A stretch of 25,293 nt of DNA from UHGV virus genome UHGV-0110227; one strand, given 5' to 3'. The notes under the pieces are model-generated. The model saw nothing but the letters and a program-made list of their open reading frames with translations, searched no databases and was not told where the DNA came from. Source of the DNA: a virus. A program made the position numbers and the translations under genes. This document shows, piece after piece, positions 7,486 to 25,293 of this stretch (within the stretch, counting starts at the first letter, position 1; each line of letters starts with the position of its first letter).

Positions 7486-7688
7486 CGTTCTCAGTAAAAA
7501 CCATTCCAGACATGCTCGTTGAAGCATACGGAAACCAGACAGAAGTAGCACGCAGACTGAAATGTAGTCGCGGTACGGTCAGAAAATACGTTGATGATAA
7601 AGACGGGAAAATGCACGCCATCGTCAACGACGTTCTTATGGTTCATCGCGGATGGAGTGAAAGAGATGCGCTATTACGAAAAAATTGA
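7482..7688 (+). CDS. ninH: NinH (small DNA-binding protein, 68 aa)
   Basis: Length and position as lambda NinH. HTH-like segment [20 protein letters not shown]. Confidence 0.8.
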
Positions 7689-8331
7689 TGGCAGCAAATA
7701 CCGAAATATTTGGGTAGTTGGCGATCTGCACGGATGCTACACGAACCTGATGAAAAAACTGGAGACGATAGGATTCGACACCAAAAAAGACCTGCTTATC
7801 TCGGTTGGCGATTTGGTCGATCGCGGTGCAGAGAACGTCGAATGCCTGGAATTAATCACATTCCCTTGGTTCAGAGCTGTACGTGGAAACCATGAGCAAA
7901 TGATGATTGATGGCTTATCAGAGCGTGGAAACGTTAATCACTGGCTGCTTAATGGCGGTGGCTGGTTCTTTAATCTCGATTACGACAAAGAAATTCTGGC
8001 TAAAGCTCTTGCCCATAAAGCAGAAGAACTTCCGTTAATCATCGAACTGGTGAGCAAAGGTAAAAAATATGTCATCTGCCACGCCGATTATCCTTGTGAC
8101 GAATACGAATTTGGAAAGCCAGTTGATCATCAGCAGGTAATCTGGAACCGCGAACGAATCAGCAACTCACAAGACGGGATCGTGAAAGAAATCAAAGGCG
8201 CGGACACGTTCATCTTTGGTCATACGCCAGCAGTGAAACCACTCAAATTTGCCAACCAGATGTATATCGATACCGGCGCAGTGTTCTGCGGAAACCTCAC
8301 ATTGATTCAGGTACAGGGAGAAGGCGCATGA
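7666..8331 (+). CDS. Serine/threonine protein phosphatase (lambda PPase / NinI type, metallophosphoesterase)
   Basis: Translation from ATG 7666 ([29 protein letters not shown]...GDLVDRG...GNHE...) carries the PPP-family motifs GDxHG, GDxxDRG and GNHE. The track start at 7591 is an upstream extension overlapping ninH. Confidence 0.92.
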
Positions 8332-9028: not shown

Positions 9029-9221
9029 AACGATGGGTTAATTCGCTCGTTGTGGTAGTGAGATGAAAAGAGGCGGCGCTTACTACCGATTCCGCCTAGT
9101 TGGCCACTTCGACGTATCGTCTGGAACTCCAACCATCGCAGGCAGAGTGGTCTGCAAAATGCAATCCCGAAACAGTTCGCAGGTAATAGTTAGAGCCTGC
9201 ATAACGGTTTCGGGATTTTTT
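9029..9221 (+). ncRNA. 6S-like late leader RNA (pR' transcript ending at tR' when Q is absent)
   Basis: The distance from the predicted pR' start to the tR' T-run is about 193 nt, the size of the lambda 6S RNA. Track ORFs 9063..9410 (+) and 9083..9391 (-) fall here and are treated as non-coding. Confidence 0.6.
9163..9221 (+). terminator. tR' intrinsic terminator
   Basis: AATCCCGAAAC ... GTTTCGGGATT long hairpin followed by TTTTTT at 9216-9221. Confidence 0.85.
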
Positions 9222-9617
9222 ATATCTGCACAACAGGTAAGAGCATTTGTAGAGTTCGACTCTCTACCGTGGGCTTTTTCCCGCGATGCGAGCCATAAAT
9301 GCTCTTTCCGTTGTGCTGAATTAAGCGAATGCCGGAAGCAGAACCGGATTACCAAATGCGTACAGGCGTCATCGCCGCCCAGCAACAGCACAACCCAAAC
9401 TGAGCCGTAGCCACTGGCTATCCTGAATTCATCAGTGATAGTTATGCTGCGGCTTTCTACACATGACCTTCGTGAAAGCGGTGGCAGGAGGTTGCGCTAA
9501 CAACCTCATGCCGTTTTGCCCGTGCATATCGGTCACGAACAAATCTGATTACTAAACACAGTAGCCTGGATTTGTTCTATCAGTAATCGACCTTATTCCT
9601 AATTAAATAGAGCAAAT

Positions 9618-9637: not shown

Positions 9638-9961
9638 ATGAAGATGCCAGAAAAAAATGACCTGTTAGCCGCCATTCTCGCGGCAAAGGAACAAGGCATC
9701 GGGGCAATCCTTGCGTTTGCAATGGCGTACCTTCGCGGCAGATATAATGGCGGTGCGTTTACAAAAACAGTAATCGACGCAACGATGTGCGCCATTATCG
9801 CCTGGTTCATTCGTGACCTTCTCGACTTCGCCGGACTAAGTAGCAATCTCGCTTATATAACGAGCGTGTTCATCGGCTACATCGGTACTGACTCGATTGG
9901 TTCGCTTATCAAACGCTTCGCTGCTAAAAAAGCCGGAGTAGAAGATGGTGGAAATCAATAA
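9638..9961 (+). CDS. S: Holin S (class I, dual-start; the Met3 start at 9644 gives the S105-type holin)
   Basis: 107 aa. Translation [83 protein letters not shown]... matches lambda S; three transmembrane segments. Confidence 0.95.
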
Positions 9962-10421
9962 TCAACGTAAGGCGTTCCTCGATATGCTGGCGTGGTCAGA
10001 GGGAACTGATAACGGACGGCAGAAAACCAGAAATCATGGTTATGACGTCATTGTTGGCGGAGAGCTATTTACTGATTACTCCGATCACCCTCGCAAACTT
10101 GTCACGCTAAACCCCAAACTCAAATCAACAGCCGCCGGACGTTACCAGCTTCTTTCCCGTTGGTGGGATGCCTATCGTAAGCAGCTTGGCCTGAAAGACT
10201 TCTCTCCCAAAAGCCAGGACGCTGTTGCGCTGCAGCAGATTAAGGAACGTGGCGCTTTGCCGATGATTGATCGCGGTGATATCCGTCAGGCAATCGACCG
10301 TTGCAGCAATATTTGGGCTTCATTGCCCGGTGCTGGCTACGGTCAGTATGAACACAAGATCGATAGTCTGATTGCCAAATTCAAAGAAGCTGGCGGGGTG
10401 GTTAATGAAACTTCGCTATAA
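9945..10421 (+). CDS. R: Endolysin R (lytic transglycosylase, lambda-type)
   Basis: 158 aa. Translation [57 protein letters not shown]... matches lambda R. Start overlaps the S 3' end. Confidence 0.95.
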
Positions 10422-12083: not shown

Positions 12084-12524
12084 ATGGCGCGCCCAACAAA
12101 GTATCAAGAGGCGTATGCCGAACAGGCGCGCAAACTGTGCTTGCTGGGCTACACCGATGCAGAGCTTGCTGATTTCTTCGAAGTCAGTGAGTCAACTATT
12201 AACAAGTGGAAGCTTGATTATCCTGAGTTTTCGGAGTCCATAAAAAAGGGTAAGGCCGTTGCTGATGCAGAAGTTAGTGATCGTCTTTATCAACGCGCTA
12301 TGGGCTTCGTGGCTCCAGACATCGATATTCGTGTTATTGAAAACAGAATTGTCGAAACTCCGCTTGAGAAGTATTACCCGCCTGATACAACCGCCGCCAT
12401 CTTCTGGCTTAAGAACCGACAGAAGGATAAATGGCGCGACAAGGTTGATCACGAACTAACAGGCAAAGACGGCGGCGCAATTCAGATTGAAACATCACCG
12501 ATGAGCACTCTATTCGGAAAATGA
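12084..12524 (+). CDS. Terminase small subunit (P22/Sf6-type C-terminal region, divergent N-terminal DNA-recognition domain)
   Basis: 146 aa. N-terminal HTH-like LGYTDAELADFFEVSESTINKW. C-terminal ELTGKDGGAIQIETSPMSTLFGK resembles the Sf6 small terminase tail as I recall it. Translationally coupled to TerL (ATGA overlap). Confidence 0.85.
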   Translation: MARPTKYQEAYAEQARKLCLLGYTDAELADFFEVSESTINKWKLDYPEFSESIKKGKAVADAEVSDRLYQRAMGFVAPDIDIRVIENRIVETPLEKYYPPDTTAAIFWLKNRQKDKWRDKVDHELTGKDGGAIQIETSPMSTLFGK

Positions 12525-13936
12525 CCTCGATTAATCCTATCTTTGAACCGTTCATTGAGGCGCATCGCTACAAAGTCGCCAAAGGCGGTCGAGGTAGCGG
12601 CAAATCATGGGCAATTGCGAGGCTGCTTGTTGAAGCGGCGCGTCGGCAGCCTGTGCGTATTCTCTGCGCTCGTGAACTGCAAAACAGTATCAGCGATTCG
12701 GTAATCCGGTTGCTTGAAGACACCATTGAGCGGGAAGGGTATTCGGCTGAGTTTGAAATTCAGCGTTCCATGATTCGTCATCTCGGAACGAATGCTGAAT
12801 TCATGTTCTACGGCATAAAAAACAACCCGACGAAGATTAAATCGCTCGAAGGCATTGATATCTGCTGGGTGGAAGAAGCGGAAGCGGTAACGAAGGAATC
12901 ATGGGACATCCTGATACCAACCATCCGCAAGCCGTTTTCCGAAATATGGGTGAGCTTTAACCCGAAGAACATACTCGACGATACCTATCAGCGATTCGTC
13001 GTAAATCCTCCCGATGATATTTGTCTGCTGACAGTGAACTACACCGACAACCCGCATTTTCCTGAAGTTCTCCGTCTGGAGATGGAAGAGTGTAAACGCA
13101 GAAATCCGACACTGTATCGTCACATCTGGCTTGGTGAGCCAGTGAGCGCAAGTGATATGGCAATCATCAAACGTGAATGGCTTGAAGCCGCAACCGATGC
13201 GCACAAGAAACTCGGATGGAAAGCGAAAGGCGCTGTTGTTTCTGCACATGACCCGTCAGATACAGGGCCGGATGCTAAAGGTTATGCATCGCGTCACGGT
13301 TCGGTAGTTAAGCGCATTGCCGAAGGTCTGCTGATGGACATCAACGAGGGGGCTGACTGGGCTACTTCGCTGGCGATTGAAGACGGTGCTGACCACTACT
13401 TGTGGGATGGTGATGGTGTCGGTGCAGGGCTACGCAGACAGACAACGGAAGCGTTCTCCGGTAAGAAAATCACCGCCACGATGTTCAAGGGCAGCGAATC
13501 GCCATTTGATGAAGATGCACCATATCAGGCTGGAGCATGGGCTGATGAAGTCGTGCAGGGCGACAACGTTCGCACTATTGGCGATGTATTCCGCAATAAG
13601 CGAGCGCAATTCTATTACGCGCTGGCTGACAGGCTGTATCTGACATATCGGGCGGTTGTTCACGGTGAGTATGCAGACCCAGACGACATGCTGAGTTTCG
13701 ACAAAGAAGCGATAGGCGAGAAGATGCTGGAGAAGCTGTTTGCAGAACTGACGCAGATTCAGCGCAAATTCAATAATAACGGGAAGCTGGAGCTTATGAC
13801 TAAGGTCGAAATGAAGCAGAAGCTCGGTATTCCATCTCCTAACCTGGCTGATGCGCTGATGATGTGTATGCATTGCCCGGAGTCGGCTGCGCAACCCGAC
13901 TATTCCAGTTACTCAATTCCTTGTGGTGTAGGTTGA
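12521..13936 (+). CDS. Terminase large subunit (ATPase/nuclease)
   Basis: 471 aa. Walker A KGGRGSGKS near the N-terminus and a Walker B-like ICWVEEAE. Position between TerS and portal. Confidence 0.93.
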   Translation: MTSINPIFEPFIEAHRYKVAKGGRGSGKSWAIARLLVEAARRQPVRILCARELQNSISDSVIRLLEDTIEREGYSAEFEIQRSMIRHLGTNAEFMFYGIKNNPTKIKSLEGIDICWVEEAEAVTKESWDILIPTIRKPFSEIWVSFNPKNILDDTYQRFVVNPPDDICLLTVNYTDNPHFPEVLRLEMEECKRRNPTLYRHIWLGEPVSASDMAIIKREWLEAATDAHKKLGWKAKGAVVSAHDPSDTGPDAKGYASRHGSVVKRIAEGLLMDINEGADWATSLAIEDGADHYLWDGDGVGAGLRRQTTEAFSGKKITATMFKGSESPFDEDAPYQAGAWADEVVQGDNVRTIGDVFRNKRAQFYYALADRLYLTYRAVVHGEYADPDDMLSFDKEAIGEKMLEKLFAELTQIQRKFNNNGKLELMTKVEMKQKLGIPSPNLADALMMCMHCPESAAQPDYSSYSIPCGVG

Positions 13937-13937
13937 T

Positions 13938-16136
13938 ATGGCAGAAAAAAAGATGACTGACTGGCATCGCAAGGTGCTGTGCAACTTTGATAATGCCTGG
14001 TCAGCAACGCAGGATATGCGTGAGCAGATTATTGAGGCTCAACGTTTCGTCCGGGTATCCGGCGCACAGTGGGAAGGCAGCACAAACGCTGGTTACTCAT
14101 TTGATGAAGGCAGGTTTGAGCATTACCCGCGCTTTGAACTGAATAAGATTGCCCGTGAATGTGATCGCATCATTGGCGAGTATCGACAGAATCGCATCAG
14201 CGTTAAATTCAGGCCGAAGGATGACAAGGCATCGGAAGCGTTAGCCGAAAAGATGAACGGCAAATTCCGCGCTGACTATCAGGAAACATCCGGTGGTGAA
14301 GCGTGTGATAACGCATTTGATGATGCTGTAACGGGCGGATTCGGTTGTTTCCGCATGTGTGCCGATTACGAAGATGAAATGGATCCGAGTAATGAGCAGC
14401 GCCGTATAAGCCTTCTCCCGGTTTACGACCCAGCGACATGCGTTTTCTTCGATCAGGACAGCAAGCAATATGACCGCTCTGATGCTATGTGGGCTATGGA
14501 AATGTTCTCCATGACGCCTAAAGCGTTCGAGGCTGAATACCCTGATTCCACCGCGGCAAGCCTTTCTCGTGATGACACTGGCACTCAATATGACTGGTCA
14601 ACGCCAGATGCCATCTATGTTGGACGCTACTACGAAGTTCGCATAGAGAAGGTGAAGCTCACGGCGTGGCGCAACCCTGTTAGCGGAGAAACGGCAATCT
14701 ATGATGAAGAGCAAATCAAAGATATTGTCGACGAGCTGACCGATGGTGCATTCGAACTGATTGGCGAGCGAACGGTGAAGAAACGCCGCGTTTATTGCGG
14801 CCTTCTGTCTGGCGCTGAATGGCTGGAAGAACCGAAGCGTATTCCTGGCGAACATATTCCACTCATCCCGGTATATGGGCGTCGCTCATTTGTTGATAAT
14901 CAGGAGCGAATCGAAGGTCACGCAGCAAAAGCGATGGATGCACAGCGTCTTGAGAACCTGATGGTTTCCATGATTGCAGATAACGCTACTCAGGCTGGCG
15001 GTGATGGCATTCCTGTAGTTGATGTTGACATGATTCCTGGTCCTCTCGCCACTCATTGGGCGGAGCGCAACAAAAAGCGCCCGGCGTTCCTGCCGATGGT
15101 CAGTCTGAAAAACAAAAACGGAGATATTACTGCGCAGGCTCAGGTCAGCAGTTATACGCCTCCGACACAAATGCCTCCAGCTCTTGCCGGGCTATTGCAG
15201 TACACCGGAACGGCTATTCAGCAAATTACAGGTGCGTCGCAGCTTGAGAACATGCCGAGCAACGTCGCTACCGATACCGTTGATAGCATCTTTAACCGGA
15301 TGGACACGCAGTCCTATATCTACATGGACAACATGGCTAAATCCATGCGCCGTGCTGGCGTCGTGTGGCTTTCTATGGCTCGTGAAGTCTATGGCAGCGA
15401 TACGCCAATGCGCATCGTTAATGAGGATGGCAGCGATGACGTGGCGCTGATGACTGGTGAAGTGGTTGACCGTCAGACAGGGCAGGTTATCGCGCTTAAC
15501 GACCTTTCGCAGGGTAACTATGAAGTGACTGTCGATGTCGGTCAGTCGTTCGCTACTCGCCGTGATGCAACGGTTAAGTCGTTACTTTCCATGCTGGCAC
15601 TTATCCCACCAGGAACGCCGAAGCACGACCTTGTATCGTCGATGATTCTCGACAATATGGACGGCGAAGGGATGGACGACCTGAAAGAATACAACCGCAA
15701 TCAGTTGCTTCTGTCTGGCGTTATCAAGCCGAGAACGCCTGAAGAACAGCAAATGGTTGAGCAGGCGAAACAACAACAGGCCAGTCAGCCAGATCCGGCT
15801 ATGGTTGCAGCGCAAGGTCAGCTTCTTGCTGGTCAGGCTGAATTGCAGAAAGCGCAGAACGAGCAGGCAGCCATTCAGGTTAAAGCATTCCAGGCACAGA
15901 CTGATGCTCAGGTTGCAGCGGCAAATGTTGTGAAAATACTCGCATCTGCCGATAGCCAGCAGAAATCTGATATCCGCGAGGCTCTGAAACTGCTCGGACA
16001 GTTCCAGCAACAGCAAGGAGACAATGCCCGTGCTGATGCAGAGCTTGTCCTGAAAAGTCAGGCACAGGGCCATGCGCAGCGCATGGACATCAGCAGCATC
16101 CTGCAAAAATCAACCCGGCAACAACCACAGCAGTAA
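13938..16136 (+). CDS. Portal protein (P22 gp1 family)
   Basis: 732 aa. Segments such as YYEV...VYDEEQIKDIVDELTDGAFELIGERTVKKRRVY, GEHIPLIPVYG and a C-terminal Q/A-rich helical tail ending QRMDISSILQ resemble the P22 portal, including its long C-terminal barrel helix. Confidence 0.9.
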   Translation: MAEKKMTDWHRKVLCNFDNAWSATQDMREQIIEAQRFVRVSGAQWEGSTNAGYSFDEGRFEHYPRFELNKIARECDRIIGEYRQNRISVKFRPKDDKASEALAEKMNGKFRADYQETSGGEACDNAFDDAVTGGFGCFRMCADYEDEMDPSNEQRRISLLPVYDPATCVFFDQDSKQYDRSDAMWAMEMFSMTPKAFEAEYPDSTAASLSRDDTGTQYDWSTPDAIYVGRYYEVRIEKVKLTAWRNPVSGETAIYDEEQIKDIVDELTDGAFELIGERTVKKRRVYCGLLSGAEWLEEPKRIPGEHIPLIPVYGRRSFVDNQERIEGHAAKAMDAQRLENLMVSMIADNATQAGGDGIPVVDVDMIPGPLATHWAERNKKRPAFLPMVSLKNKNGDITAQAQVSSYTPPTQMPPALAGLLQYTGTAIQQITGASQLENMPSNVATDTVDSIFNRMDTQSYIYMDNMAKSMRRAGVVWLSMAREVYGSDTPMRIVNEDGSDDVALMTGEVVDRQTGQVIALNDLSQGNYEVTVDVGQSFATRRDATVKSLLSMLALIPPGTPKHDLVSSMILDNMDGEGMDDLKEYNRNQLLLSGVIKPRTPEEQQMVEQAKQQQASQPDPAMVAAQGQLLAGQAELQKAQNEQAAIQVKAFQAQTDAQVAAANVVKILASADSQQKSDIREALKLLGQFQQQQGDNARADAELVLKSQAQGHAQRMDISSILQKSTRQQPQQ

Positions 16137-16226: not shown

Positions 16227-17120
16227 ATGGACCAGATGGCAGAAAACACACCAGAAGTTGAAATCGAAACCGACGCGTCAGAGCAGATTCCTGATGATGT
16301 CGAACTGGCTGAAGAAGTCGAAACAGAAGATGGCAGTGAGTCCTCCGGCAATGATGCAGAGGAAGCTACTGAAACTGATGACGACGAATCGGAACAGGAA
16401 TTCTACTTTGGTGACGAAAAGCTGGATTCGCCAACCAGCGAAGATGGCGCAGAGCATGGACTGGTAAAACACCTGCGCAAGACGATTAAAGAGAAAGACC
16501 GTGAGCTGAAAGAGCTGATGCGTCAGTCTCAGAAACCCGTCGAGCAGCAGCCGGTAATTACTCAACCACCGCGAATGCCAAAACTGGATGATGAGGACAT
16601 CGGTTTCGATGAAGAAATCTACCAGCAACGCATGGCTAAGTGGGCAGAGGATAACGGCAAGTACCAGCAACAGGAGATGGCTCGCAAGCAGAAGGAGCAG
16701 GAGCTTCAGGCTGCTTATCAAGAGCGATTATCCCAATATCAGCAACGTGTTAAGGCTCTCAAGGTTCCTGGCTATCAGGAAGCAGAACAGGCCGTACTCG
16801 AGGAAATCCCCATCGAGACACAAAACGCGATCCTGTTTGAGTCAGAGAAGCCGGAAATCGTTGTTCTGGCACTCGGTCGCAACGCTGAACTGCGCAAGCA
16901 ACTGGCAGAAGCTACCAACCCCGTAGCAATTGGTCGTCTGCTGGAACGTATCGAATCGAAGGCCAGAATCATGCCAAAAGCAAAAACCACGGCAGCCACA
17001 ACCCCGACAGTTAAGGGGAGCAACGGCGCAGTAATCAATAACCTCGACAAACTGAAAGCCAAGGCGCTGGAAACTGGTGACTGGACGCCGTATTTCGCCG
17101 CTAAAAAGGCAAAAAAATAA
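16227..17120 (+). CDS. Scaffolding protein
   Basis: 297 aa between portal and coat. Highly acidic N-terminus; helical, charged, Q/E/K-rich body; basic C-terminal tail (KKAKK). Confidence 0.75.
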   Translation: MDQMAENTPEVEIETDASEQIPDDVELAEEVETEDGSESSGNDAEEATETDDDESEQEFYFGDEKLDSPTSEDGAEHGLVKHLRKTIKEKDRELKELMRQSQKPVEQQPVITQPPRMPKLDDEDIGFDEEIYQQRMAKWAEDNGKYQQQEMARKQKEQELQAAYQERLSQYQQRVKALKVPGYQEAEQAVLEEIPIETQNAILFESEKPEIVVLALGRNAELRKQLAEATNPVAIGRLLERIESKARIMPKAKTTAATTPTVKGSNGAVINNLDKLKAKALETGDWTPYFAAKKAKK

Positions 17121-18433: not shown

Positions 18434-18622
18434 ATGGCACGAACAATGCTCTATAAGCCTGGCAACATGATCACCTGTGGTCAGTTTGCTGTCGATTACA
18501 TCATTGTTGATGGCGAAGAAGTTAAATCTCACCTGAAAAAAGGTTGGGTAAAAACTCCTGAAGAAACCGCAACGAAGCAAAAAGTGGCTAAGGCGGAAGA
18601 AGATGGCGAAAACGAAGGGTGA
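18434..18622 (+). CDS. Hypothetical small protein (62 aa) between coat and gp4
   Basis: ATG at 18434 with GGGAGAAG SD. Translation MARTMLYKPGNMITCGQFAVDYIIVDGEEVKSHLKKGWVKTPEETATKQKVAKAEEDGENEG. The 3' end overlaps the gp4 start. The track start at 18395 lies inside the terminator. Confidence 0.55.
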   Translation: MARTMLYKPGNMITCGQFAVDYIIVDGEEVKSHLKKGWVKTPEETATKQKVAKAEEDGENEG

Positions 18623-19064
18623 TCTCGTTCTAAAGGCTTTACGAAAAGCCGGACTGTATTCCAATGCCACGTTGACAGATGCTGACCCTCAGGCAATTGA
18701 AGATGCCATTAATGACCTCGAAGACATGATGGCAGCATGGCAGGCTAAAGGTATCGAGCTTGGGTATCAGTTTGCTGATACAGAAAACGGCATCATGCCG
18801 TTACCTGACGATGATTCAGGTATCCCTGCATGGGCAAATGATGGCGTCGCTTTGAAACTCGCTGTGCAAGTGTGCATGGATAACGTCATTCAGCCGTCAG
18901 ACGCTCTCCTTACCGCTGCTGACAGTGCATATCAAACAATCTGTATCGCTTTAACCAAAATACCACCACTTGAGCGGCGAAATGACATGCCTCGCGGTAG
19001 TGGTAACAAAAGCGCGTTTACGTGGAATCGGTTTTACATCGAGAAAGATGATCCGAGTACGTGA
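18603..19064 (+). CDS. Head completion / tail accessory factor gp4 (P22-type)
   Basis: 153 aa. N-terminal KTKGDLVLKALRKAGLYSNATLTDADPQAIEDAINDLEDMMAAWQ resembles P22 gp4 as I recall it. Confidence 0.85.
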   Translation: MAKTKGDLVLKALRKAGLYSNATLTDADPQAIEDAINDLEDMMAAWQAKGIELGYQFADTENGIMPLPDDDSGIPAWANDGVALKLAVQVCMDNVIQPSDALLTAADSAYQTICIALTKIPPLERRNDMPRGSGNKSAFTWNRFYIEKDDPST

Positions 19065-19073
19065 GGTGAATAA

Positions 19074-20492
19074 ATGCCGATTCAGCAACTTCCGCTTATG
19101 AAAGGTGTCGGCAAAGACTTCCGAAACGCTGACTATATCGACTATCTGCCAGTGAATATGCTGGCTACACCCAAAGAAATCCTGAACAGCAGCGGATATC
19201 TTCGCTCATTCCCTGGCATTGCCAAACGCTCTGATGTGAACGGTGTATCTCGCGGCGTCGAGTACAACATGGCGCAGAATGCTGTTTATCGTGTGTGTGG
19301 TGGCAAGCTGTACAAAGGAGAAAGTGAAGTCGGTGACGTCGCCGGAAGTGGTCGCGTATCAATGGCGCATGGTCGTACATCTCAGGCGATAGGTGTTAAT
19401 GGTCAACTGGTCGAGTATCGCTATGATGGCACGATTAAAACCGTCTCAAACTGGCCTACAGATAGCGGATTCACTCAGTATGAGCTAGGTTCGGTTCGTG
19501 ACATTACGCGCTTACGTGGGCGTTATGCGTGGTCAAAAGACGGCACCGATTCATGGTTTATCACTGACCTTGAAGACGAATCGCATCCTGACCGCTACAG
19601 TGCACAATATCGTGCCGAGTCTCAGCCGGACGGCATCATCGGCATAGGTACATGGCGAGATTTCATCGTCTGTTTTGGTTCATCGACGATTGAATATTTC
19701 TCCCTGACTGGTGCAACCACAGTTGGTGCTGCTTTGTATGTCGCCCAGCCATCGCTGATGGTGCAGAAAGGCATTGCCGGGACTTACTGCAAAACGCCAT
19801 TCTCTGATTCATATGCGTTCATCAGCAATCCGGCAACAGGTGCGCCGTCTGTGTACATCATCGGCTCCGGTCAGGTGTCACCAATCGCCAGTGCGAGCAT
19901 TGAGAAAATCCTCCGCTCCTACACTGCTGATGAACTGGCTGATGGCGTGATGGAATCGTTGCGGTTTGATGCTCATGAGTTGCTGATTATCCATCTTCCG
20001 CGTCACGTCCTCGTGTACGACGCATCTTCAAGCGCCAATGGTCCACAATGGTGTGTGCTGAAAACAGGCTTATATGACGATGTGTACCGCGCTATCGACT
20101 TCATTTACGAAGGCAATCAGATAACGTGTGGCGATAAGCTGGAATCGGTTATCGGCAAATTGCAGTTCGATATCAGCAGCCAGTACGACAAGCAACAGGA
20201 ACACCTGTTGTTTACTCCGTTGTTCAAAGCGGATAACGCAAGAGTGTTCGACCTTGAGGTTGAATCTTCAACTGGCGTTGCGCAGTACGCTGACCGCCTG
20301 TTCCTCTCTGCAACCACTGACGGAATCAATTACGGGCGTGAGCAGATGATTGAGCAGAATGAACCGTTCGTTTATGACAAACGTGTTTTGTGGAAGCGAG
20401 TCGGGCGCATCAGGAAAAATGTCGGCTTCAAATTGCGCGTTATCACGAAGTCACCTGTCACTATGTCAGGCTGCCAGATAAGGATTGAGTAA
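19074..20492 (+). CDS. Tail accessory factor gp10 (P22-type)
   Basis: 472 aa. Translation [65 protein letters not shown]... is near-identical along its length to P22 gp10 as I recall it. Confidence 0.93.
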
Positions 20493-21340
20493 TGGCTGAT
20501 TCGAATCTCAATGTGCCGGTAATCATTCAGGCTACACGACTCGACACATCAGTCCTTCCGCGTAATATCTTCTCGCAGTCATATCTGCTGTACGTTATTG
20601 CACAGGGTACTGATGTTGGTAATGTGGCTAACAAGGCCAACGAGGCCGGACAGGGCGCTTATGATGCGCAAGTCAGGAACGATGAGCAGGATGTGATTCT
20701 CGCTGACCATGAGCAGCGAATTTCTGCTGCGGAAGCAACGCTTGTTAATCATGAGGAGCGAATCAGCCAGGCAGAATCAACTCTTCAGGAACATGAAACA
20801 CGAATAGTTCAGAATGAAAGCGATATTGCGTCGCTTGATACCAGAGTTCAGTCGCTGGAATTGCAGGTTTCAGGCCATGAAACGCGCATCGATGCTCTGG
20901 AGTATGCCACTACTCGCAAGAAGTCAGAGGTTGTTTACTCTGGCGTATCTGTAACCATCCCGACAGCGCCGACTAACCTTGTTAGCCTGCTGAAAACGCT
21001 CACGCCGTCATCCGGAACGTTGGCACCATTCTTCGACACCGTTAACAACAAGATGGTTGTGTTCAACGAGAACAAAACCTTGTTCTTCAAGCTGTCGATT
21101 GTCGGGACGTGGCCCAGCGGAACCGCAAACAGGTCAATGCAGCTAACCTTTTCCGGCTCTGTTCCTGACACACTGGTTAGCAGTCGTAATGCGGCGACAA
21201 CAACCGACAACATCCTGTTAGCTACGTTCTTCAGCGTGGATAAAGACGGATTTCTTGCCACAAATGGCAGTACGTTAACCATCCAGTCAAATGGTGCGGC
21301 GTTTACTGCCACAACCATCAAGATAATCGCGGAGCAGTGA
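20492..21340 (+). CDS. Tail needle protein gp26 (trimeric coiled-coil fibre) with an extended C-terminal domain
   Basis: 282 aa. N-terminus [43 protein letters not shown]...NDEQDV resembles P22 gp26. Middle carries repeated HE(Q/E/T)RI heptad-like units. The C-terminal 130 aa or so are S/T/N-rich and unlike P22. Confidence 0.88.
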
Positions 21341-21795
21341 TGATTCAGTTCAAACCAACGCGAAACATCGACCTGATCGAAGCAGTCGGAAATCACCCTG
21401 ACATTATTGCCGGGAGCAACAACGGTGATGGATACGACTACAAACCTGATTGCCGTTACTTTGAGGTGAACGTGCACGGGCAGTTCGGCGGCATTGTTTA
21501 CTATCAGGAGATTCAGCCGCTGACATTCGATTGCCACGCCATGTACCTGCCAGAGATTCGCGGCTTCAGCAAGGAAATTGGGCTGGCGTTCTGGCGATAC
21601 ATTCTGACTAACACCACCGTTCAGTGCGTCACATCGTTCGCCGCACGCAAATTCCGCCACGGTCAGATGTACTGCGCAATGATTGGCCTTAAGCGTGTCG
21701 GAACCATCAAGAAATACTTCAAAGGCGTGGATGACGTGACATTTTACAGCGCTACACGCGAAGAACTAATCGACTTCCTGAATCACAGGAGATAG
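21340..21795 (+). CDS. Head assembly / ejection-associated protein gp14 (P22-type, by position)
   Basis: ATG at 21340 overlaps the gp26 stop. The track start at 21337 is GTG. 151 aa in the gene-14 position between the needle gene and gp7. Confidence 0.7.
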   Translation: MIQFKPTRNIDLIEAVGNHPDIIAGSNNGDGYDYKPDCRYFEVNVHGQFGGIVYYQEIQPLTFDCHAMYLPEIRGFSKEIGLAFWRYILTNTTVQCVTSFAARKFRHGQMYCAMIGLKRVGTIKKYFKGVDDVTFYSATREELIDFLNHRR

Positions 21796-21797
21796 CC

Positions 21798-22490
21798 ATG
21801 TTATATGCATTTAAGCTGGGCAGAAAACTGCGCGGCGAGGAACCTTTTTTCCCTGAAAAAGGCGGGAAAGGTGGCAGTTCTGATAAAAGCGCAAAGTATG
21901 CAGCAGAAGCTCAGAAGTATGCCGCAGACCTGCAAAATCAGCAGTGGCAGACGATCATGAAAAACCTTGCTCCGTTCACGCCGCTTGCGGAGCAGTATGT
22001 TAACCAGCTTCAGAACCTTTCCAGTTTAGAAGGTCAGGGGCAGGCACTTAATCAGTATTACAACTCTCAGCAGTATAAAGACCTTGCAGGTCAGGCTCGT
22101 TACCAGAGTCTTGCTGCTGCGGAGGCTACGGGAGGACTTGGTTCGACAGCCACAAGCAATCAACTGGCTACGATCGCTCCGACACTCGGTCAGTCTTGGT
22201 TATCAAATCAGATGAGCAATTACAACAATCTGGCAAACGTTGGGCTTGGTGCGCTGCAAGGTCAGGCAAACGCCGGGCAGACATACGCCAACAACATGAG
22301 CAGCATTGCACAGCAAAGCGCAGCTCTTGCCGCTGCTAATGCCAACAAACCATCAAGTCTTCAGACTGCAATTAGCGGTGGCACGTCTGGTGCGATTGCC
22401 GGTGCAGGTCTTGCCAGCCTTTTGGGAACATCAACACCTTGGGGCGCTGGAATTGGTGCTGGTATCGGATTGCTTGGCTCGTTGTTTTAA
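21798..22490 (+). CDS. Ejection protein gp7 (P22-type)
   Basis: 230 aa. Translation MLYAFKLGRKLRGEEPFFPEKGGKGGSSDKSAKYAAEAQKYAADLQNQQ... and the Gly/Ala-rich hydrophobic C-terminus resemble P22 gp7 as I recall it. Confidence 0.9.
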   Translation: MLYAFKLGRKLRGEEPFFPEKGGKGGSSDKSAKYAAEAQKYAADLQNQQWQTIMKNLAPFTPLAEQYVNQLQNLSSLEGQGQALNQYYNSQQYKDLAGQARYQSLAAAEATGGLGSTATSNQLATIAPTLGQSWLSNQMSNYNNLANVGLGALQGQANAGQTYANNMSSIAQQSAALAAANANKPSSLQTAISGGTSGAIAGAGLASLLGTSTPWGAGIGAGIGLLGSLF

Positions 22491-22499
22491 GGGGTAATC

Positions 22500-23966
22500 A
22501 TGGCTACTTGGCAAGGATCAAATGGCGGATTGTTGGCTGGTATCGGCGGCGTCAACTCAAACGCTCCGAGCGTAAATGACATCGGCAATACGCTTCAGCT
22601 TATCAGGCAGAACAATGATATTGAGCGTTCAGGCGCTAACAATGTTGGGCTGACTGCTTTGCAAGGTCTTTCAGGTGTTGCAGGGGTGTTTCAGCAGGAA
22701 AAGCAGGCTCAGCGGCAGAAAGAATTTCAGCAGGCGTATGCTAATGCTTATGCGTCTGGTGATCGCGGTGCTTTGCGTCAGTTGGCTACTCAATATCCAG
22801 ACCAGATTGAATCCGTTCGTAAAGGCATGGGATTCATTGATGAAGATCAGCGTAATTCTATCGGCACCTTAGCGGCTGGCGCACGCCTTGCGTCATCGTC
22901 TCCAGAAGCAATGCAATCATGGCTGCAAAACAACGCCAAGGAACTGGCGCGCGTCGGTGTTGACCCTAACAACGTTGCTCAGATGTATCAGCAGAATCCT
23001 TCAGGGTTTGGTGAGTTTGTTGATCACCTTGGGATGGCTGCTCTCGGTCCGATTGACTACTTCAATGTTCAGGACAAGATGGCTGGTCGTGAGATTGACC
23101 GAGGCAGGCTGGCAGAGACAATCCGCAGCAATCAGGCTGGCGAGGCACTTCAGGCGAGAGGGCAGGATATTAGCCGAGCAAATGCGTTAACGTCAGCATA
23201 TGCACCAACAGCCGCAATGCAGAATTACAATCAGTACGCGCAAATGTTAAAGGCGGATCCAGATGGTGCAGCGGCATTTGCGGCAGCGGCGGGAATTAAT
23301 CCCAATGCTAAGAAATTACTTAAGGTTGAAACCAATCCTGATGGCTCGGTAACTAAGTATTACACCGATGGCAGCGAGGAAGCCGGAAAACTAAACCAAC
23401 CTATATCTGGTGATGGCATTAAACCAATTAGTTTGCCACAAGCGCAAAGCATCATAGATAAGGCTAATGAGGGTTCCAAGAAGGCGGCAGGATTTGCTTT
23501 GCGATTAAAAGATTCAATGGACTCAATGAATCAGCTTAGTAAAAGCATTGACCCTAAGCGAGTTGCATTAATAAATCGCTCTCTTGGTGATGGGACTATT
23601 GCAAATTTAAGCCTATCACCAGCGGAGCAGCAATATATGGTAAATGCGAGAGACGCCTTGTATGCAATTTTGCGCCCAGAAACAGGTGCAGCAATTACTC
23701 TGCCAGAGATGCAGGAGTATTCCAAAATGTACCTGCCTCAGCCTGGTGATTCCAAGGCTGCTACTGAAACAAAAATGCGAAAAATGCAGGGCCAATATAA
23801 CTCATTACGTGGTCAGTCTGGTCGCGTTTATGATGCTTTGGTGGTTTCAAGTGCTGCAAATAGTCAACAACAGAGCAATAGCCAACAACCGACAAATACC
23901 CAACAGCAGCAGAGTCAATCCGGATCATATACCTCAAAATCAGGCATTCAATTTACGGTGGAATGA
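22500..23966 (+). CDS. Ejection protein gp20 (P22-type)
   Basis: 488 aa in the gene-20 position, with a Q/S/N-rich low-complexity C-terminal tail. Confidence 0.8.
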
Positions 23967-25276
23967 TGAAAGTAACTGCAAACGGTAAGACATTTACCTT
24001 CCCTGATGGTACGAGCACGGAAGATATTGGCACCGCCATTGATGAGTATTTTGCTGGTCAGGCTGTTCAGCAACAAACAGTTAATCAGGCCAATAATGAA
24101 CCAGCACGTGAAGAACCATCATTGATGCAACAAGCTGGCGATTGGCTCACAGGTGGTCAAAGTGCAGGGCAAATTGCAGAGCAGGCTGGTCGTGGTCTGG
24201 TAAACATACCATTTGACGTATTGCAGGGCGGCGCAAGTCTGATTAATGCAATCAGTCAGGGGCTTGGTGGACCCAAGGTTTTGGATGATGTTTATCGTCC
24301 AGTAGACAGACCGACAGACCCATACGCACAAGCCGGTGAAACAATTGGTGGGTATTTAGTTCCAGGAGTTGGAACGGCAGGAAGCATGGCTATTGGATCA
24401 CTGGCAGAGGCCGCAAATCAGAAAGGCGATTTCGCACAAAATGCAGCTAAAAATGCCGGAGTTAACCTTGCCGCTCAGGGGGTTCTTTCCGCAGCAGCAA
24501 AGGGAATAGGGCGTGGAATAACGGCTATAAAAGGTGATATTGCGCCAGAAGTGGCGAAGAAAATTGCCACATCAGAATCGATGGGCGTGACACCAATGAC
24601 ATCTGATGTTATCCCGCCGAAAAATGCTTTCACTCGCGGCCTTACTCAGGATGCCGAGGGGGCTTTGCTCGGGACAGGCTCAAAGCGAGCGGAGCAATAT
24701 GCAACGCGTAGTAAGTTGGTAAGTAATTATTTTGACCGTTTTGGTGAGTACAACCCGGATGATGTGGTGAAATCTCTGACCACCACGTTAAGGGGACGGA
24801 AGGATGCCGCTGGCGCTGTTATCAATGACGTCACCAATAAAATGGGGAATGCCGCAGTTGATACCACAAACACTATGAATGCTCTGAATACAGCGATCGC
24901 AAGACAGGAACGGCTTGGGACGTCTGCCAATCAAAGCCTGCTTACATCCTTGCGTAACCTACGCGAAGAATTAGCAAACCCTGCAACTGATTTGGATGTT
25001 ACGTTTGATCTCTTGCGTCAGCACAGAACAGCATTTAGATCTAATGTTCAGGGAGATGCTATGGTCTTCCCCAACCAGGCAAAAGCAGCTACCAATATGG
25101 TAGAGAATGCAATGTCAAAAGACCTTCGTAACGCAGTTGCTAAAAACCTCGGTGCATCAGACGCAGCAAAATACCTTAAAGCAAATTCCGATTATGCAAA
25201 CGTTTATAATAAGGTGCTTAATAAAAACATTGCCAACATGACCTGCTCCCCGTTGATTAGTACACCCCGATGTTAG
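23966..25276 (+). CDS. Ejection protein gp16 (P22-type); possibly shortened or with a divergent C-terminus
   Basis: N-terminus [32 protein letters not shown] resembles P22 gp16 as I recall it. An alternative ATG lies at 23963. The ORF stops at 25276 after an atypical C-terminus, 17 nt before the window ends. Confidence 0.75.
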
Positions 25277-25293
25277 TAATGTCTTCATAAGCC

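Follow-up and report, generated by a model that had tools for sequence, protein, structure and literature searches.

Gene content of the window

The stretch of DNA analysed here (the window; 25,293 nucleotides, UHGV virus genome UHGV-0110227) is a typical P22-like lambdoid genome. Its genes run in the order N, cI-type repressor, cII, O, DnaB-type P, NinB/X/G, phosphoesterase, Q, holin, Rz and Rha, followed by the large terminase, P22-type portal, scaffold and coat genes. Next on the plus strand are genes encoding a P22 gp4-like tail accessory factor (head-to-tail adaptor; 18603..19064; PF11650, E = 7e-41) and a P22 gp10-like tail hub with a channel predicted to be plugged by the tail needle (19074..20492; PF11134, E = 1.3e-300; syntenic with Sf6 gene 8). 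Downstream of the needle gene are genes for a P22 gp14-like protein (DUF2824; 21340..21795, plus strand; PF11039, E = 3e-53; syntenic with Sf6 gene 10) and for two ejection proteins, also on the plus strand: a gp7-like protein (21798-22490; PF25688, E = 2.3e-133) and a gp20-like protein (22500-23966; PF16928, E = 9.9e-78). We determined that this gene order (gp4, gp10, needle, gp14, gp7, gp20, gp16) is that of phage Sf6. The Pfam matches of the neighboring genes and the Sf6 annotation assign the needle gene to a P22-like late operon, with the tail hub gene (P22 10 / Sf6 8) on one side and the gp14 homolog on the other.

Among phage records and complete E. coli genomes, none matched more than about 80% of the window, as is expected for mosaic phages, and tRNA and Rfam scans of the window returned no matches. 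Between the NinG and Q genes, positions 7591-8331 encode a 246-amino acid calcineurin-like phosphoesterase (Metallophos, E = 6.4e-17) with TTG as its first possible start codon; this protein is probably the usual lambdoid nin-region phosphatase. Several reading frames of 115-297 amino acids had no Pfam match at E ≤ 0.001: 110-475 on the minus strand, and 9063-9410, 9945-10421, 12084-12524 and 16227-17120 on the plus strand. Judging by position, 9945-10421 probably encodes the endolysin, 12084-12524 the small terminase, and 16227-17120 the scaffold.

The needle gene itself (20492..21340, plus strand) is an uninterrupted open reading frame of 282 codons plus TGA that begins with ATG and contains no frameshift or internal stop. 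Its ATG shares one base with the stop codon of the upstream 472-amino acid gp10-like reading frame (TAATG), and its TGA shares one base with the ATG of the downstream gp14-like gene (TGATG); the needle gene of Sf6 shows identical one-base start/stop overlaps, at 8254 and 9102. The encoded protein has the same length as Sf6 gp9 (the tail needle encoded by Shigella phage Sf6 gene 9, NP_958185; 282 amino acids) and aligns with it without gaps, with 274 of 282 residues identical (97%), a common three-domain layout and matching flanking genes. Residues 1-91 are identical in the two proteins, and the eight substitutions fall in the shaft (R92S, D100E, A106V, S113A, S124L, D128G) and the knob (S234A, S270A). 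The two genes are 94.6% identical at the nucleotide level, and their 46 nucleotide differences lead to only 8 amino acid changes, which is consistent with purifying selection on the needle gene until recently. We found no sequence evidence against an Sf6-type identity. The gene is homologous to Sf6 gene 9 and to gene 26 of P22, and its product almost certainly is an Sf6-type (“knobbed”) trimeric tail needle belonging to a P22-like (Lederbergvirus) prophage.

At the right end of the window, the P22 gp16-like DNA transfer gene (23963..25238, plus strand) is truncated after codon 425: in tblastn searches, its homology to gp16/DNA transfer proteins (74-84% identity) stops at residue 425, and the last 12 codons of the reading frame before its stop come from an insertion sequence. 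The left end of this IS3-family (ISSen4-like) element occupies 25239..25293 (plus strand) and begins TGACCTGCTCCCC. Its 55 bp are identical to E. coli copies, and two E. coli genomes whose flanking sequences are unrelated carry the same sequence directly upstream of genes that bear the annotation “IS3-like element ISSen4 family transposase”. An “IS1 family transposase” was also considered as the match of these last 55 bp and rejected, as the IS1 feature is merely adjacent and the element is IS3-like, of the ISSen4 family.

Gene 16 of P22 is essential for injection. The ejection proteins are required as well (PMC3741392). With its gp16-like gene cut by the insertion sequence, the prophage is therefore likely to be defective despite its intact needle gene, and the needle may no longer serve in an infectious particle produced from this genome. 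The needle gene might accordingly be viewed as a decaying remnant without current function: the interrupted ejection gene lies 2.6 kb downstream of it, and more than 100 E. coli genomes carry small P22-like remnants that keep an Sf6-type needle gene (PMC3741392). Against this stand the full-length reading frame, the translational-coupling overlaps retained at both of its ends, the small number of amino acid changes among the nucleotide differences from Sf6, and the intactness of all other structural genes in the window. We consider decay rather unlikely, and favor a gene that still encodes a complete Sf6-type tail needle.

Plug, shaft and knob of the needle

We delimited three domains in the needle protein. 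The N-terminal virion-proximal domain (residues 1-72; 20492..20707, plus strand) is predicted to plug the channel of the tail hub, a role described for the N-terminal domain of tail needles (PMC3741392, PMC9728967). It is identical to P22 gp26 at 59 of 72 positions (82%), and PDB 8EAP_B, which comprises residues 1-62 of the tail needle gp26, matches the N-terminus with E = 1.7e-27. In a wider comparison with the PDB, a match to residues 1-144 was obtained with the P22 gp26 needle structures 2POH, 3C9I, 4LIN, 4ZKP and 8EAP. A preliminary description of this DNA had called the N-terminal 60 residues P22 gp26-like, which agrees with the identity we find there (49/60, 82%), but the end point it set understated the reach of the P22-like part: in BLASTP alignments, gap-free similarity to gp26 continues to residue 137 (59% overall, 34% over residues 73-137).

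The second domain is a predicted coiled-coil shaft (residues 61-139; 20672..20908, plus strand), which we defined by its heptad layout, its motif spacing and the way it aligns with the P22 gp26 helical core. The preliminary description had noted heptad-like HExRI repeats and proposed a coiled coil, and both proposals fit the heptad register that we derived. Four copies of the motif HE.RI lie at residues 73, 87, 101 and 129, so that they are 14, 14 and 28 residues apart (each a multiple of 7), and not one of 20,000 shuffles of the needle protein contained at least two such motifs. When residues 61-137 are laid out in heptads, one column holds I, L or V in 10 of 11 rows, and the column three residues past it has H, A, L, N or Q, among them the histidine of every HExRI. 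This pattern places the histidine and isoleucine of each motif in successive “d” and “a” positions of the coiled-coil core. The shaft aligns without gaps to the helical core of the P22 gp26 structures 2POH, 3C9I and 4LIN. Needles of this family have a three-stranded coiled-coil shaft with 11-16 heptads (PMC3741392), and the 11 unbroken heptads between plug and tip in the window needle fall inside that range.

We also considered whether the HExRI repeats arose by a recent duplication of DNA and rejected this, since Tandem Repeats Finder (minimum score 30) detected no tandem repeat in the needle gene; the periodicity is thus confined to the protein (heptad) level. As a separate observation on shaft length, gene 26 in the record of P22 strain MSU (AB362338.2) measures 639 nt, compared with 702 nt elsewhere among P22 records. 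The shortfall of 21 codons (three heptads) indicates that shaft length varies even among P22 stocks.

The third domain is an Sf6-type tail needle knob (residues 140-282; 20909..21337, plus strand), with a TNF-like fold according to the literature. It matches PF16532 (Phage_tail_NK, Sf6-type phage tail needle knob) over the full length of the profile (positions 1-175 of 175) with E = 2.8e-115 and 382 bits, against a cutoff of 27. Residues 130-282 match the crystallized knobs of Sf6 (PDB 3RWN, E = 2.9e-90) and HS1 (PDB 4K6B, E = 8.7e-90), and over residues 138-282 there are two substitutions relative to 3RWN and one relative to 4K6B. These matches bear out the earlier suggestion that the distal domain is knob-like and has no relation to the P22 tip. 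The description of a C-terminal domain that is rich in serine, threonine and asparagine and unlike P22 is likewise accurate in composition (35% S+T+N in residues 141-282) and in its dissimilarity to P22; its size, given as some 130 residues, is closer to 143 (residues 140-282).

The C-terminus lacks a P22-type tip (subtypes A-C of Leavitt et al. 2013), which would show as homology of its last 95 or so residues to P22 gp26 residues 141-233: the BLASTP alignment to gp26 ends at residue 137. When we compared the two tips directly by BLASTP, the best segment covered 30 amino acids near “GTAN...LTF” with 40% identity and E = 0.15, and a MAFFT alignment of the two tips was gap-filled and not meaningful. 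We took the 30-residue segment as a chance match and rejected collinearity of the C-terminus with the P22 tip. The observation of a non-P22 tip, for which such collinearity had been named as the decisive check, therefore stands. Of the phages put forward for comparison, HK620 has a tip that is itself P22-type, subtype A (PMC3741392). The knob had been taken for an unusual swap; in fact the whole protein is an allele of Sf6 gp9.

The tips of Sf6 and HS1 are TNF-like knobs that bind three L-glutamate molecules through Glu146, Lys200, Ser248 and Asp250 (PMC3741392). All four of these ligand-contacting residues (E146, K200, S248 and D250) are conserved in the window needle.

Role of the needle tip

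By analogy with published proteins that are 97-99% identical to it, the window needle would form a trimer, adopt the same fold, plug the tail hub and influence the kinetics of DNA delivery. The same range of identity (3RWN, 4K6B, PMC3741392, PMC9728967) suggests that its knob is a TNF-like trimer, and that the needle would be incorporated into virions and expelled at infection. From the cryo-EM work on the Sf6 tail (PMC9728967) and the functional work on needles (PMC3741392), we propose the following mechanism. A single needle trimer would protrude from the tail's center, with residues 1 to about 70 of each chain inserted into the gp10 tail-hub channel as a plug that retains the packaged DNA inside the head. 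The three-stranded coiled-coil shaft would be built from residues 61 to about 139, with the isoleucine of each HExRI motif at core position “a” and the histidine at the preceding “d”, and residues 140-282 would form the TNF-like trimeric knob at the distal tip, with three L-glutamate molecules bound. During infection the needle would reach the outer membrane before other parts of the virion. Its expulsion from the virion would then open the channel for the ejection proteins (gp7, gp20 and gp16) and the DNA, with the tip affecting the speed of DNA delivery rather than the choice of host.

Exchanging C-terminal domains, an experiment that the preliminary description had suggested, was published by Leavitt et al. 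in 2013, who placed the Sf6 and HS1 knobs on the P22 needle (PMC3741392). On Salmonella, titre and infectivity were normal for P22 with codons 69-282 of Sf6 and for P22 with only the HS1 knob; mutants of the L-glutamate site were also normal, and even a foldon tip was tolerated (PMC3741392). Changes to the tip altered the kinetics of K+ release and DNA delivery, not host range (PMC3741392). These chimeras, with unchanged host range and altered delivery kinetics only, argue against the earlier proposal that the tip may reflect host or receptor adaptation.

On this reading, the knob would be a determinant of host range or of a secondary receptor, picked up in adaptation to Escherichia/Shigella envelopes. 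The distribution of knobs agrees with it: among P22-like phages, knob-type needles were seen only in those infecting Escherichia or Shigella, while 48 Salmonella phages had none (PMC3741392), and the full-length nucleotide matches to the needle gene in our phage collection are nearly all Escherichia or Shigella phages. The authors of the chimera study considered a role of the tip in host specificity unlikely, and left possible a specific role in native Shigella infection (PMC3741392). The normal infection of Salmonella by P22 with an Sf6 or HS1 knob, an altered L-glutamate site or a foldon tip argues against a host-range determinant, as does the finding that in P22-like phages host specificity is set by the tailspike (PMC3741392). 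A 95.5% identical gene is also present in a record named “Klebsiella phage phiKp_30”. On balance we judge a host-range role for the knob improbable, and prefer a knob that would act on the kinetics of delivery.

The P22/Salmonella chimera experiments could not reveal a knob role specific to native Escherichia/Shigella infection. One could imagine that the knob, perhaps through its bound L-glutamate, has an envelope-sensing or secondary-receptor role specific to such infections, and that the S234A and S270A substitutions could tune it. The one basis for this idea is the restricted host distribution of knob-type needles, and we regard it as very improbable. The window offers no special handle on the function of the knob and its L-glutamate during native Shigella or E. 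coli infection.

Relatives of the needle and its knob

The needle protein in the window is already known: near-identical proteins have been structurally solved and genetically characterized, and the protein is routinely annotated. As a routine allele of a characterized phage protein, it has little importance beyond correct annotation. Nucleotide identity of the gene is 94.6-96.3% with its counterparts in phages Sf6, N7, Louie and Kapi1 (96.3% for Kapi1) and reaches 97.2% with prophage genes of E. coli to which PGAP gives the name “tail needle knob protein”. At least 80% of the gene is present in 437 of 5,426 complete E. coli genomes.

Knob-type needles were found in 69 of 164 P22-like genomes, all of them Escherichia or Shigella phages, with knobs at most 4.9% divergent (PMC3741392). 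This low divergence, together with the host restriction, suggests that the knob was acquired recently from outside the P22-like group (PMC3741392). The window knob, which differs from that of Sf6 at 2 of 143 residues (1.4%), fits this picture. Record LC768498.2, named for the Klebsiella phage mentioned above, carries its Sf6-type needle gene at 13781-14627; since surveys find knob-type needles only in Escherichia/Shigella P22-like phages, the host assignment of phiKp_30 may be doubtful.

Megablast searches returned pieces of the gene as well as full-length matches. Salmonella phage UPF_BP1 and phage Dewey share nucleotides 1-209 with the needle gene, and phage JEP4 shares nucleotides 402-849. 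These pieces suggest that the needle gene may comprise three exchangeable modules.

The gp26 needle of Salmonella phage P22 (PDB 2POH, 3C9I) shares the gene position and plug function of the window needle, with a homologous plug and a collinear, gap-free shaft to residue 137. Its tip is unrelated, comprising 96 residues without significant similarity to the 143-residue knob of the window needle. In the P22 gp26 tip, a triple beta-helix is combined with an inverted coiled coil. P22 and Sf6-type tips have been described as “completely different” (PMC3741392).

The needles of E. coli phage HS1 (4K6B) and of phages with long-form needles such as Gally have an essentially identical knob and an identical N-terminal domain, and differ from the window needle in the shaft: at 317 amino acids, they carry a shaft that is five heptads (28+7 residues) longer and divergent in sequence. 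Stand-alone knob homologs, in contrast, lack a gp26-like plug or shaft and occur in unrelated virion types (PMC3741392). These proteins, annotated “tail needle knob” in T4-like, Vi1-like and other phages (for example RB43, PhiSH19 and ECBP5), are 40-57% identical to residues 140-268 of the window needle, in agreement with the 37-63% range reported for knob matches outside the P22-like group (PMC3741392).
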